Below are positions 56,087 through 61,313 of a DNA stretch of 64,000 nt, one piece after another. The notes under the pieces were generated by a model, which made no database searches, had not been told where the DNA came from, and saw only the letters and a list, made by a program, of their open reading frames with translations. Source of the DNA: Minisyncoccia bacterium (GTDB lineage Bacteria > Patescibacteriota > Minisyncoccia > Phycocordibacterales > Zambryskibacteraceae); NCBI GenBank assembly GCA_049651785.1, contig JBASCT010000025.1, positions 5,563-69,562 of the forward strand, written 5' to 3'. Numbering within the stretch: position 1 is the stretch's first letter; every line of letters begins with the position of its first letter. Made by a program: the position numbers and the translations under genes.

Positions 56087-56488
56087 TTATCTTGTTCTTA
56101 AAAGTGTGTTCACCATTATCACCCCCGCGACGTTGAAGTCCTCCCACTCGGGCGCGGGCTTCTCGGAGACGAGGCGCATCCTGCCCGTGACGGCGATAGT
56201 GTCTTCCACCTTAAGGTCGGTATTGGCATCCTGAATTCTCGAGATATCGAGAGCGTAGAAGAGGCCGTCGCGGGACTTAACGCCCAGAGTGCAGGCGGCG
56301 TCTTCGTTCGGCTCCTTGAGAGGCAGACAGCTGAAAGAGCCCGTGATAGTGACCATGTCGTCTATCTCGTCGTTCACCACCTTATCCCAGCCCTTGAAGA
56401 GGATGGCGCCGAGAACGAGGAGCGCGAAAAGGACCACGAGCCAGACGGCATTTTTCCTAACAGGTCCCTTGTTTTCGTAGTCGTCCAT
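56087..56488 (-). CDS. Membrane-anchored hypothetical protein
   Basis: N-terminal TM. No homolog recognised. Confidence 0.45.
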   Translation of the reverse strand: MDDYENKGPVRKNAVWLVVLFALLVLGAILFKGWDKVVNDEIDDMVTITGSFSCLPLKEPNEDAACTLGVKSRDGLFYALDISRIQDANTDLKVEDTIAVTGRMRLVSEKPAPEWEDFNVAGVIMVNTLLRTR

Positions 56489-56610
56489 ATTTAGCGAGCG
56501 CTCCCTTCCCTCATATTTCCCTTATTATACCCCTTCTAGACGCCCGAGCAAGCTGGGACTTACAGATTGAGCATGGGATCTATAGTATCGAGCTCGTGTT
56601 TCTGGCTCGT

Positions 56611-57483
56611 TCATATTCCTATTTTCCAAACTCCCTTCTCGAGAAAAGCTTCAATGGTCTGCCTAGTTGCTTTATTGATAAGATTTGAGTGGGATGTCTT
56701 TTGAGATTTTGCATAATCAACTAAAGTCACAATTTTCTTCCCTTCCAAGTACGCCAAACGTTTGTGATAACTATTGGTCAGAGCTTTCGCGACTATCTCT
56801 TCCATTATTTCTGTTTTACCCTTTTCATCAAATTCCTTAAAAGCATCGTAGTACTTCGCTCGGTCGATGAATTTAATATTGATTGGCACAAAACCTTCTC
56901 TGATTAAAAGATAGTTATTGAGCACACGACCAATGCGTCCGTTACCGTCTATAAATGGGTGGGTGTATTCAAACGCGAGGTGCAGTTTTGCAATCCTCTT
57001 CACAACACTCTTATGATTACTTGCGTTATATTCCGCAAGCATTGTCTCTAGTCGCCCTACAACTTCTCGCGCATGAGGCGCAATGTGGCTACCGACACGT
57101 ACTCGCTCATCCCCCTCACGAAATCGTCCTGCGATATCGTCACGGATATTTGAGATGAGCATTTTATGAAGCGAAAGCATGACGTCGAGTGTCAATTCTT
57201 GTTCTTTCGCTCGTTTATCAATATATGAAACAACTTTTGCAAGGTTTTTTGCTTCAAAAATTTCTCGTTGGTTGATAAACCGATCGAGGTCAATCTGAAG
57301 TAATATCTTTTCCGTTTCTTCTAGTGTGAGCGTGCTGTTTTCGATTGCGTTTGAGTTGTACACCTGCTCTGGTATCTCTGCCTCGTTGACAAGCTTAATA
57401 ACCGCCTCTTTTCCCATAGAAGCTTTGTAGTAACGCTCACGAAGAGTATTGATTTTGCTAAATACTGCCGGTGTCTTTGCCAT
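56611..57483 (-). CDS. Fic/Doc family protein
   Basis: Fic motif HPFIDGNGRIGR. Confidence 0.85.
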   Translation of the reverse strand: MAKTPAVFSKINTLRERYYKASMGKEAVIKLVNEAEIPEQVYNSNAIENSTLTLEETEKILLQIDLDRFINQREIFEAKNLAKVVSYIDKRAKEQELTLDVMLSLHKMLISNIRDDIAGRFREGDERVRVGSHIAPHAREVVGRLETMLAEYNASNHKSVVKRIAKLHLAFEYTHPFIDGNGRIGRVLNNYLLIREGFVPINIKFIDRAKYYDAFKEFDEKGKTEIMEEIVAKALTNSYHKRLAYLEGKKIVTLVDYAKSQKTSHSNLINKATRQTIEAFLEKGVWKIGI

Positions 57484-57491
57484 ATATCATA

Positions 57492-57519
57492 AGTATAGCT
57501 ATTTTCACGCTTTTGTCAA
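57492..57519 (-). promoter_or_regulatory. Promoter TTGACA-16-TATACT for fic. The -10 lies about 8 nt before the ATG, so the mRNA is probably leaderless
   Basis: Read on the reverse strand. Overlaps a 14-bp direct-repeat copy. Confidence 0.4.
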
Positions 57520-57565
57520 CATAATCGTGAAAATCACTGAAAAATCTCGCTTTTTCACGCTTTTG
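57502..57565. repeat. Two 14-bp direct repeats TTTTCACGCTTTTG (57502-57515 and 57552-57565) plus an inverted half-site CGTGAAAA (57526-57533)
   Basis: Exact copies 50 bp apart in the fic upstream region. Operator-like. Confidence 0.6.
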
Positions 57566-57825
57566 ACTATAATTCCCCCTTAGGCATTCTTCAGCGCCTC
57601 AATATCGATCTTCTTCATACTAAGCAGTTTCTCCCACGCCTTTGGTTTGAGTATGAGCTTTTCAATATTTTCCGGATTAATTTGCCACGAGAGACCGTAC
57701 TTATCCTTGCACCAGCCACACTTTTCCCTTAAACCATAAGTTCGGTGTTATTTTTTGCATAAGGATATTTTACTACTTTTAAAGCCGAGAGACCTTTCTT
57801 ATATAGAGAAAAGGTTGAATTTGTG

Positions 57826-58233
57826 TTAGTTTTTATCTCTAAGAAGTTTTTTTCCAAGATTTACTAGCTTATTTGTAAGTCCTGTGCCTTCCAAAATTTG
57901 TTTTTTTAATGCATTAATGTCTGTTGGGTTCAAACTTCCAGTTATAGGAAAGTTTTCCCATTTTTCTACGTGTTTATCGGAGTTGTGCAGATGGGCTGCA
58001 AGTCCTTCAAAATCACGACTTGTTAGTATCACATAGGCAAGTACGGGCGCATTAATGTCATCGGTGTGAAGCTTTTTTTCGTATTTTTTAGTAAGGTTTC
58101 TAACAATATTTGTTGCATCTTCATTAAGAATCTTTGCAACATGATATTCATCATTTTCTACGTCTGAAAACAACCAAACATACGGGTTTCCTTTAAACAA
58201 GAATACTTGTCCGAAGGTTATAAGCGGACCCAT
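57826..58233 (-). CDS. Hypothetical 135-aa protein, candidate toxin partner of the Panacea-domain gene
   Basis: Starts 3 nt after the Panacea gene stop. About 33% GC. No homolog recognised. Confidence 0.45.
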   Translation of the reverse strand: MGPLITFGQVFLFKGNPYVWLFSDVENDEYHVAKILNEDATNIVRNLTKKYEKKLHTDDINAPVLAYVILTSRDFEGLAAHLHNSDKHVEKWENFPITGSLNPTDINALKKQILEGTGLTNKLVNLGKKLLRDKN

Positions 58234-58236
58234 ATC

Positions 58237-58779
58237 TTACACAGCTATTTTTAACGCGGCTTCAATGTCTTCCTTTTCAACAAAGCTGTCCTTGTCATCA
58301 GCACCAAGTTCGTATGGTATAAACTCACCAAGTTTTGTTTTTAGCCACGCCGATTCATTGTGAGACGCTTCTTCGATTTGCTTTCCAGTACTATCTCTAA
58401 AAATCTCACAAACCTCTTCCATTACTTTGAGTTCGCTTTTAGTAAAGTATTCTGCATCTTTTGGAGTGAATTTTCTCTTGACTAGTATTTTTTTCATTTT
58501 GCTATCCTCTCTTTCAACCACTGAAATCGTGTCACCCAAAACTGAGTTATCAATATCAGTTTCCACAGAATTAACCAAATTCATGATTGCAGAAGGAACT
58601 GGCCCGTGCTCCAAATTCACGTAGTTATCACTTGTTATGGGTGTTAAATATTTTTTTACGTGCCGAAAATCCGCAAAGTAAAAGAGCTTCATGAGCTTTG
58701 TTTTCCCCATCAAATTTGGGTCTGTGTAAGTAGCGAAGTAAAGAATCATCTTTTTTACCTTCGCTTGTGATATTTTCAT
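58237..58779 (-). CDS. Panacea (DUF4065, SocA-like) domain protein, candidate antitoxin
   Basis: KLMKLFYFADF...LEHGPV motif typical of DUF4065 as I recall it. Confidence 0.55.
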   Translation of the reverse strand: MKISQAKVKKMILYFATYTDPNLMGKTKLMKLFYFADFRHVKKYLTPITSDNYVNLEHGPVPSAIMNLVNSVETDIDNSVLGDTISVVEREDSKMKKILVKRKFTPKDAEYFTKSELKVMEEVCEIFRDSTGKQIEEASHNESAWLKTKLGEFIPYELGADDKDSFVEKEDIEAALKIAV

Positions 58780-58973
58780 CTATAAATTGCCTTGCGCTCG
58801 ATGCGCTTATTATAACATTAACGAGTCAAAGTGGGTTGTCCACAATACAGATTTTTGTTGAAAAGTCAAGCCATCTACGAATGGATTTTGCCGCCAAGGA
58901 TCATAAGTGGACAAAACGCACAAATAGTAAGTAGCCGCCGAACTTTTCCTGCTAGCATTTCAGGGGATTTATA

Positions 58974-61313
58974 TTAGAACTTCAGCTCTTCCCAATCACT
59001 CCAATCGTTTCGCTCGCACCTGCCCCAATCGTACTTATCTTTCTGATTTATTTTCCACCTTCCATTTTTCTCTATCGCAATACCGCCAAAAAGTTTTTTG
59101 CCTTTCTTATTTTGCTCTTTGATATATTCCTGCAATTTTTCGGCTTTTGCTTTTGTGTATGTCGTTCCGTCGCGATCTCCGGCAGCCTTCGTTTCAAACA
59201 TTCCAATCTGTCCGTTGGCAAATTGCACGAGATAATCGGGGTAAAAAGTATGTATCACGCCTTCGGGATATTCATACTTTATACCAAAATAATCTTTCTT
59301 GTTTTCGCCGTTCTTCCACCACCAAACTATTTTCCCCGGATTCTCGTTCAAAAACTTTTCAAACTGCCTCTCTGGGTCTAGCCGGGTCGCGCTCAAATAA
59401 CATGGTTCATAAACATACTTTTTACCCTCCGCGATCTCATCCGCGTATTTGTTGAAAAAACTTTCCGGCGCAACATCAAATTCATACCATTGTTCGCTTT
59501 CCTCAACTCGTTTTTTTATCTCTTTTTCGCGAATTGTTTTATATGCTTCAATCGCGTCAGTCAAAATCGCCTCAAACTGCTTTCTGTTTCCATTGTGCAG
59601 GAAAATCATCTGCACGAGAATTGCTTCCTCCGGCCATTCTTTTGCGCCGAGATACTTCCTAAACCACGAATAAATCGCTGTCTTTACTTTCGGCACTGAT
59701 CGCTTAATGTTTTTGAATGAGCCAAGATTGTTTTTGATAGTTTGCTCAAACAATGCCTGTAAGTCGTTGCCTGCGATTGTAAGGCGGGCAAAATCTGCGG
59801 AGCTGATCTTTCCCTCAATTTCATCAAAACTTTTTCCCTCAATTTTAGCGTTAGCGATTATATCTTGCTGATATTTTGTGATATCAAGCACCATGCCCGC
59901 GCGCTCCATTTTTTCCGTATTTTGCGCAAACAAAGTGTGGTCTCCTTTCAAATCAAAATGTATGCAAGCCGTTCTCTCAAACACTGGAGTAAAACTTGAT
60001 GTAATGTCGCCGTAATCAGCGCGCGCCTTATAGTACGACACAAGTTTAATCGGCTTATACGCCGCCACACGGCCACTCTTGAGGTGTTTGATGATGTTAG
60101 GGTTATATTCTTCCTTTTTAACGATAATGCTTTGGACATTGGTATAGATATAGCCGACATTCAAAGGTTCGTTCGCATAGTGTTTCTGTTCGGGCATGCG
60201 CAAAATACGTCCGACGGTTTGGATTTCAAATGTCTCGCTGTGCGATTCGCGGAATTTCACCAAAATATGCGCGCGCGGACAATCCCAGCCGGTATCAATC
60301 GCTTGCTTGAAAATAAGAAACTCAATCTCATTGTCTAAATCTCTGACCCATTCATTTTTTGGGCCCAAGGCGGCCGACTTGTCGTCCGCCAGCCAAATCG
60401 CGAGCTTGCCATTTTTTTTGGTTATACCTTTGCGCGCCAAAAATTCCTTTACGGCTTTTATTTTGTCCTCTCCTGCTTCTGCTGTCGGTATTTGCACCAG
60501 CGCGAGCGGATTGACAATTGATTTCTCGGCTTCAAAAAGTTTCTTCAACTCCTTTCGTTTCTGATAAGCGGCTTCCAAAACCACTTCCTGCGAGTCGTTT
60601 TCGTCATCACTAATCTTGTCAATCCTATCGTTGATAACTAATTCTTTCTTTATCATGCCCTCGTCAATTACCTCTTTCGGCTCAATGAAAATAAATCCCG
60701 CCATACCGCGCGCCAAATCGCGCGGATCGGGTTGAATTTTTGGCGTCGCGCTCATTTCCAAAATAACATCGGCATTTATTTCCTCTCGTAATTCGTTAGT
60801 GCGTTCTGCTGTTGCTCCGATATGGCTTTCGTCAATAATCAAAATAACTTTTCGCTGTTCTCTCGTTTTCGCCATTACATCGCGAAAGTTTATTTTCTCG
60901 CCGTCCTTCATCAAAACATTTTTCCATTCGCCAGTTTCGCGGTCTTTACTTCGCAATTTTTCCCAATTTGCCACCACAACCTCGTTTCTGACAATTCGCT
61001 CCCGCCCGCCTGTAAATTCTTCCTCAACAAGCGAAACTCGCGGCGCGCCGCCAAAAAGTTCTTCCAAACTCCGCTTGCTTTGTAAATGCAAATCTCCCTT
61101 GCCGATACTTACCCACACAAAACATAAATCCTCATCAATCAGTTCTTTGATAATTTCTTCAATAAACTTGGCGGTCATTATCGTTTTACCACTTCCGGTA
61201 GGAGCTTGAAAAACGCAAACTTTTTTATTCCCTTCTTTTTTAAGCAAGGTTTTGACTGCGGCGATAAGTTCGCCAACCGCTGTTTCCTGATATTGTTTTA
61301 AGTTAATATTCAT
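58974..61313 (-). CDS. res: Type III restriction enzyme Res subunit (SF2 helicase/endonuclease)
   Basis: Walker A QAPTGSGKT, motif II IIDESH, helicase C region. Confidence 0.8.
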   Translation of the reverse strand: MNINLKQYQETAVGELIAAVKTLLKKEGNKKVCVFQAPTGSGKTIMTAKFIEEIIKELIDEDLCFVWVSIGKGDLHLQSKRSLEELFGGAPRVSLVEEEFTGGRERIVRNEVVVANWEKLRSKDRETGEWKNVLMKDGEKINFRDVMAKTREQRKVILIIDESHIGATAERTNELREEINADVILEMSATPKIQPDPRDLARGMAGFIFIEPKEVIDEGMIKKELVINDRIDKISDDENDSQEVVLEAAYQKRKELKKLFEAEKSIVNPLALVQIPTAEAGEDKIKAVKEFLARKGITKKNGKLAIWLADDKSAALGPKNEWVRDLDNEIEFLIFKQAIDTGWDCPRAHILVKFRESHSETFEIQTVGRILRMPEQKHYANEPLNVGYIYTNVQSIIVKKEEYNPNIIKHLKSGRVAAYKPIKLVSYYKARADYGDITSSFTPVFERTACIHFDLKGDHTLFAQNTEKMERAGMVLDITKYQQDIIANAKIEGKSFDEIEGKISSADFARLTIAGNDLQALFEQTIKNNLGSFKNIKRSVPKVKTAIYSWFRKYLGAKEWPEEAILVQMIFLHNGNRKQFEAILTDAIEAYKTIREKEIKKRVEESEQWYEFDVAPESFFNKYADEIAEGKKYVYEPCYLSATRLDPERQFEKFLNENPGKIVWWWKNGENKKDYFGIKYEYPEGVIHTFYPDYLVQFANGQIGMFETKAAGDRDGTTYTKAKAEKLQEYIKEQNKKGKKLFGGIAIEKNGRWKINQKDKYDWGRCERNDWSDWEELKF

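Follow-up and report, generated by a model that had tools for sequence, protein, structure and literature searches.

Introduction

Toxin-antitoxin (TA) systems in which a Panacea-domain protein (PanA) is the antitoxin of a toxin (PanT) were surveyed by Kurata et al. 2022 (PMC8832971), who defined 88 PanT clusters and validated the pairs of P. moraviensis (cluster T6) and B. ruminantium. The toxins of these two pairs have no CDD hit, are EndoA/PemK/MazF-like by HHpred and inhibit translation (PMC8832971). Neutralisation by a standalone Panacea protein is direct, and the domain may in addition be a sensor (Ernits et al. 2023). Here we describe a pair of genes in a 64,000-nucleotide (nt) stretch of DNA, called the window below, from a Minisyncoccia bacterium (Patescibacteriota; assembly GCA_049651785.1, contig JBASCT010000025.1, positions 5,563 to 69,562 of the forward strand). 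The first gene, panA, encodes a Panacea-domain protein, and the second, called the partner gene below, encodes a protein of 135 amino acids (aa) without a recognisable family. We consider this pair to be a TA-type cassette, with a probability of about 0.7, and a well-supported candidate for a type II PanA-PanT module whose cryptic toxin is predicted to have the MazF/CcdB fold.

The kind of system is already known, and because Panacea antitoxins with cryptic MazF-like toxins have been validated experimentally, no new principle is involved. The partner family, however, extends across the candidate phyla radiation (CPR) and has hitherto been unannotated. Patescibacteria have tiny genomes with few recognised TA or defence systems, and the present analysis connects about 370 clusters of 'hypothetical' proteins of 110–150 aa with a toxin fold and with a Panacea antitoxin of their own, which allows a recurrent accessory cassette of these bacteria to be annotated. 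The MazF/CcdB superfamily also gains a very divergent lineage, for which concrete residues are named. One cultured carrier, Parasediminibacterium sp. JCM 36343, was identified and is tractable for study of the module, although its toxin gene is frameshifted.

Comparison with the described Panacea systems

The TA-like pairs of the earlier survey were recognised by genes no more than 100 nt apart in an architecture found in at least two species, by reciprocity, and by operons of no more than three genes (PMC8832971). At our locus the two genes are separated by 3 nt, and intact pairs were found at 53 of 59 loci in many CPR lineages; no flanking gene family occurred more than twice among 93 ORFs (open reading frames), and a PF13274 gene stood upstream in 5 of 5 reciprocal look-ups. 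The locus shares three features with clusters T5, T6 and T8: a PanA devoid of an N-terminal domain, a gene order with the antitoxin in front, and only a few nucleotides between the genes. It also resembles the cryptic toxins of that survey, in that the partner is a small 'hypothetical protein' without a CDD or Pfam hit and with a predicted MazF-like structure, and in that the cassette is chromosomal and mobile.

There are also differences. The T5 and T8 toxins match PemK/MazF by HHpred at a probability of more than 99%, whereas the partner family gives no profile-level signal and is therefore much more divergent. It is centred on Patescibacteria, which the RefSeq-based survey barely sampled; the Saccharibacteria entries there are PanAs with a helix-turn-helix (HTH) domain paired with cluster T14 toxins (PMC8832971). 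The comparison with clusters T5, T6 and T8 is one with their published descriptions, and the family may be identical with one of them. In the literature searched, no link between Panacea and Patescibacteria was found.

The panA-partner gene pair

Both ORFs lie on the minus strand, panA at 58237..58779, encoding the putative antitoxin of 180 aa, and the partner (panT-like) gene at 57826..58233, encoding the putative toxin. The first-pass annotation had placed the two ORFs at these positions, with the second one starting 3 nt after the Panacea stop codon. The junction, GTG TAA gat ATG, bears this out: the spacer gat (58234..58236, minus strand) leaves exactly 3 nt between the panA stop codon TAA and the ATG of the partner gene. 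At the other loci described below, the spacing was mostly between −17 and +17 nt. Direct reading of the spacer sequence gave no evident Shine-Dalgarno ahead of the partner ATG, so that translation of the partner is likely coupled to that of panA. The databases contain the exact sequence of each protein, labelled hypothetical, from a metagenome-assembled genome of Minisyncoccia (Patescibacteria/CPR). The pair had also been assigned to an islet of about 33% GC. The low-GC contrast is real, as the pair has 36.1% GC (partner gene, 34.8%; panA, 37.0%) against 51.4% in the rest of the window, but the figure was slightly low, with a minimum over 500 nt of 33.8%.

The assignment of the 180-aa protein to the Panacea domain was confirmed in the profile hidden Markov model (HMM) search that had been proposed for it, in which PanA matched PF13274 (SocA_Panacea) with 77.5 bits against a cutoff of 25.7 (E 1.9e-21) over profile positions 1-112 of 113. 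The AlphaFold2 model of PanA is of high confidence (predicted local distance difference test (pLDDT) 95, predicted template modelling score (pTM) 0.92) and consists of a single compact domain spanning residues 1-180, without an HTH, PAD1 or zinc-binding N-terminal domain and without a disordered tail. A sequence-profile search of the PDB with the PanA alignment returned nothing. The PanA family comprises 270 matches at 50-80% identity, mostly from CPR, and the protein is 42-80% identical to the PanAs of about 60 other genomes, again mostly CPR. Relatives are labelled 'uncharacterized phage-associated protein' by the Joint Genome Institute (JGI).

The region 58809..58869 is a candidate promoter region for the pair. 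A consensus scan gave a candidate promoter TTGACT-16-TATTGT at 58869..58842 on the minus strand, in a scan whose number of sites was not above shuffle expectation, and reading by eye gave a candidate extended −10 element, TGTTATAAT, at 58817..58809 on the minus strand, 29 nt upstream of the panA ATG. In comparison with the closest relative, the upstream operator/promoter DNA was not conserved, save for about 14 nt at the ribosome-binding site and start codon.

Conservation of the pairing

The partner had been described as lacking a recognisable family, and indeed it gave no match above noise in Pfam, NCBIfam or PADLOC. A word-indexed search with the single sequence found one relative, 54% identical, on a 4.7-kb contig, where it adjoins a Panacea gene 80% identical to panA at the protein level. 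This result is misleading because such a search misses the partner family. When the PanA-family alignment was scanned against one genome per species, 69 loci were obtained, and nearly all of them had a tightly coupled ORF of 125-140 aa downstream. BLASTP or phmmer related about 50 of these ORFs to the partner, with identities of 22-34%, and the family HMM recovered the remaining homologues. An intact partner gene lies directly downstream of the PanA subfamily in 53 of the 59 evaluable loci, that is, the loci of this subfamily with enough downstream sequence, the window included. Since the two-gene arrangement recurs in this way, the pairing of PanA and partner is far beyond chance. The analysis as a whole supports the candidate TA pair proposed at the outset. 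The paired loci are almost all from Patescibacteria. Nine loci (L008, L014, L017, L029, L040, L049, L053, L056 and L062) carry the titles 'uncultured Gammaproteobacteria', 'Pseudomonadales' or 'Bacteroidales', and such titles may stem from mislabelling or mis-binning of contigs, or else the cassette may really have spread beyond Patescibacteria.

The pairing was equally clear from the partner side. In an exhaustive HMMER search, the family profile was run against 1.84 billion representatives and recovered 367 members, 321 of them at E <= 1e-10; the best 150 of the 367 were all stand-alone proteins of 110-149 aa. Where the sources name family members, the name is 'hypothetical protein', and a Pfam scan of 42 members gave no shared family, only chance-level matches of single members. 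The five partner-side look-ups led to nine places, all of which had a PF13274 gene immediately upstream, with an overlap of up to 13 nt or a gap of up to 3 nt.

The pair travels as a unit. The 93 flanking ORFs, taken from 50 loci, encode products as varied as tRNA synthetases, ribosomal proteins, insertion sequence (IS) transposases and restriction enzymes, and the cassette is an autonomous, horizontally moving one. Over 41 loci, the pairwise identities of PanA and partner were correlated with r = 0.59, a value reached by 0 of 2000 permutations in a Mantel test, while the partner diverges about twice as fast as PanA (mean identity 29% vs 55%). Neither tblastn with the partner against plasmid and phage records nor the scan of viral contigs with PanA revealed the pair; the former gave no match and the latter a single distant relative, so viral contigs and the records of phages and plasmids are essentially devoid of the cassette.

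Decay of the cassette is asymmetric, as six loci have an intact PanA gene with a disrupted partner gene. Single nonsense codons interrupt the partner at three loci (L015, L026 and L042), and an internal deletion was found at L025. In the cultured Bacteroidota strain Parasediminibacterium sp. JCM 36343 (L051:3001-3950, NZ_JBKHKJ010000018.1), PanA is intact and 46% identical to that of the window and the partner is frameshifted; this copy is an example of toxin-first decay. At L053:869-960, the partner is truncated after about 21 codons at a tRNA-like junction (translation 'ARRDSNPRSYR'), which hints that a tRNA within the toxin gene was the site of an insertion or a recombination event. Distant PanAs (27-35% identity, L064-L069) are followed by genes unrelated to the partner, which is partner swapping as described for Panacea.

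Predicted fold and conserved residues of the partner

The structure prediction proposed for the 135-aa protein was carried out with AlphaFold2 on an alignment of 21 family sequences and gave a model with pLDDT 80.8 and pTM 0.76. The model begins with an N-terminal meander of three strands, which is followed by a long helix, then by three short strands and finally by a pair of C-terminal helices. In a Foldseek search of the PDB, MazF chains ranked first at a non-significant level (best E 0.38, TM score about 0.5). Comparison of the 167-sequence family by hhalign with MazF/Kid and CcdB reference sequences gave probabilities below 1%; a PDB sequence-profile search with the partner alignment was empty, and none of the 42 members had a PemK (PF02452) or CcdB match in Pfam at E <= 1. 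From the model, the partner is predicted to belong to the MazF/Kid/CcdB/ToxN structural superfamily with its SH3-like barrel, at the level of the fold only. Two segments of the family, 'FGD[IV]F' at the start and the strand 'YCFVxLTT', look similar to 'GD[IV]W' and 'CVPCTT' of MazF, a resemblance that we take as a lead and not as a test.

Within this predicted fold, the model has a tight β1-β2 hairpin without a conserved Arg, and the loop that carries the catalytic Arg in MazF has no counterpart. Conserved positions of the family are F7 (97% of the family), G8 (99%), D9 (80%), L70 (100%), T72 (95%), R78 (78%), H81 (71%) and D105 (99%). MazF-type endoribonucleases have, in addition to the catalytic Arg, a Thr or Ser behind the central strand; in the partner model T72 follows strand 4, and R78 is near it in sequence. 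By analogy with the validated toxins of the same fold, the partner may be an RNase, for which we would give slightly less than even odds. It is unlikely, in our estimate, that the pair is a genuine PanA-PanT module in which the barrel is only a scaffold and the toxin is not an RNase, being instead a CcdB-like poison of DNA gyrase or acting on some other target.

The window copy departs from the family consensus at several conserved polar positions, and this weighs against an active toxin here. At positions 9, 72, 76, 78, 81 and 105 it reads Q-S-E-L-H-D, with Ser at 72 and Leu at 78, where the commonest residues are D-T-K-R-H-D; the nearest relative, P0002, retains both K76 and R78, and a basic residue is absent at both 76 and 78 in only 16 of the 167 members. 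The window copy might thus be a decaying or attenuated one, a cassette of the TA type whose toxin was inactivated by missense changes and of which a remnant survives while the islet erodes. Such erosion is indicated by the remnant of another gene, interrupted by stop codons, 90 nt downstream of the partner gene, and neither the ORF list nor the Pfam scan of the islet showed an integrase; partners are moreover overtly disrupted at about 10% of loci. Yet both ORFs of the window are intact and retain their 3-nt coupling, and the window partner still scores 84 bits over its full length against the family HMM. The lack of both basic residues in about 10% of members also means that positions 76 and 78 may not be essential. 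On balance we regard attenuation of this copy as possible but rather unlikely.

The residue pattern bears on a further question, whether the pair is a TA system at all. Panacea and the small barrel protein could form a conserved non-toxic complex, for example a sensor-adaptor or a phage-related one. Apart from D105, the family has no invariant set of catalytic-looking residues, the JGI label of the PanA relatives mentions phages, and toxicity in E. coli was lacking for several predicted PanTs (Kurata et al. 2022, PMC8832971). We judge a non-toxic complex to be quite unlikely. The TA-type cassette is supported by the Panacea domain of PanA, the tight and conserved pairing, the co-divergence of the two proteins, the variable context, the partner-first decay and the fold-level match.

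A broader possibility is that the partner represents a CPR-centred, sequence-orphan branch of the MazF/CcdB fold with a rearranged active site (D9, T72, K76, R78, H81 and D105, without the β1-β2 catalytic loop), an activity or target unlike those of MazF, Kid, CcdB and ToxN, and a standalone Panacea guard in every case. This is speculative and, on present evidence, improbable; if it were true, the pair would be a dominant, so far uncatalogued TA/defence module of ultra-small episymbiotic bacteria.

Proposed mode of action

As a TA module, the pair would work as follows. A promoter ahead of panA would drive both genes, and translation of the partner would depend on coupling across the 3-nt gap. 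Judging from the fold and from the validated PanTs that share it, free partner would arrest growth by cleaving RNA and blocking translation. PanA, by analogy with the published standalone PanAs, would bind the partner directly and hold it inactive. The pair might plausibly serve phage defence or stabilise the island, since it lies in a small defence-type islet with a Type III restriction-modification (RM) system and a Fic gene beside a tRNA-Ser gene.

Comparison with other toxin-antitoxin systems

In MazEF, Kis-Kid (PemIK) and CcdAB, the antitoxin is a DNA-binding protein of the AbrB or ribbon-helix-helix (RHH) type with a disordered tail that wraps the toxin, whereas PanA is a globular Panacea domain. 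Compared with the toxins of these systems, the partner has no sequence similarity and no β1-β2 catalytic loop, but possesses an additional long helix (residues 38-54) together with two helices at the C terminus. The type III systems ToxN, AbiQ and CptN have an antitoxin RNA of tandem repeats upstream of the toxin, in contrast to our locus, where a protein partner is conserved. An RNA antitoxin was considered and rejected, as there was no tandem array in 56400-59100 and no Rfam match besides tRNA.

SocA of the Caulobacter type VI system SocAB is the founding Panacea antitoxin and the source of the Pfam family name. It is a proteolytic adaptor for SocB, a replication inhibitor. PanA scored 14.4 bits against the SocA equivalog NF047745, for which the cutoff is 190, and the partner is unrelated to SocB. 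For DarTG of M. tuberculosis (7yk3_D, annotated as DarG), there was no match at the sequence level. DarG contains a macrodomain enzyme, and a DNA ADP-ribosyltransferase is the toxin of that system.

The low-GC islet and its other genes

The pair lies in a low-GC islet at 56560..63036, delimited by composition and domains, which holds the Fic gene, a remnant of a vicinal oxygen chelate (VOC) gene, the PanA-partner pair and the Type III Res and Mod genes; apart from the pair, these are outside the module. The islet has 39.9% GC, compared with 51.4% in the rest of the window, and ends at a 23-nt copy of a tRNA 3' end described below. The placement of the pair between Fic and the RM system in the first-pass annotation was correct: Fic is at 56611..57483, Res at 58974..61313 and Mod at 61303..63000, all on the minus strand.

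Fic lies on the same strand as the pair, about 340 nt downstream of it, and it matches the PADLOC models PDC-S04 and SoFic in addition to its domain match. Fic/Doc-like domains rank with the most frequent domains of PanTs (Kurata et al. 2022, PMC8832971), and Fic could accordingly be the true toxin partner of PanA, with the 135-aa ORF as an accessory. However, Fic has its own near-consensus promoter in the consensus scan, TTGACA-16-TATACT (57519..57492, minus strand), and a pseudogene remnant separates it from the pair. It carries, besides the active-site motif HPFIDGNGRIGR, its own SNAIEN inhibitory-helix motif, and looks self-inhibited because both motifs are present. Nor is Fic a recurrent neighbour at the 50 other loci, and in the closest relative the ORF in the equivalent position is not homologous to it. 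On these grounds Fic was rejected both as a third gene of the module and as the true toxin, the latter being very improbable. A 14-nt direct repeat occurs at 57502-57515 and 57552-57565; the Fic promoter overlaps one copy and is just downstream of the other, and the repeat could be an operator.

The remnant between the partner gene and Fic, at 57580-57735 on the minus strand, is the C-terminal part of a VOC/3-demethylubiquinone-9 3-methyltransferase gene (PF06983, 30.3 bits). It covers only the last 16 profile positions ('...CKDKYGLSWQINPE...') and has stop codons upstream.

On the high-coordinate side of the islet lies a tRNA-Ser(gct) gene (63168..63255, minus strand), found by tRNA scan. A perfect 23-nt direct repeat, 63014-63036 and 63164-63186, duplicates the 3' end of this tRNA, where no such repeat is expected by chance, and by its position at the islet edge it appears att-like. 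A third copy of the 23-mer was not found at the far end of the islet (56.5 kb), the two copies both being near the tRNA. An additional inverted tRNA-like fragment is present at 63088-63108.

The RM genes were assigned by Pfam and PADLOC scans. Mod is the methyltransferase of the system, and mod and res overlap by 11 nt (61303-61313). Res, with 779 aa, is shorter than the REase_III profiles of PADLOC (809-973 positions), and its profile matches are partial in length.
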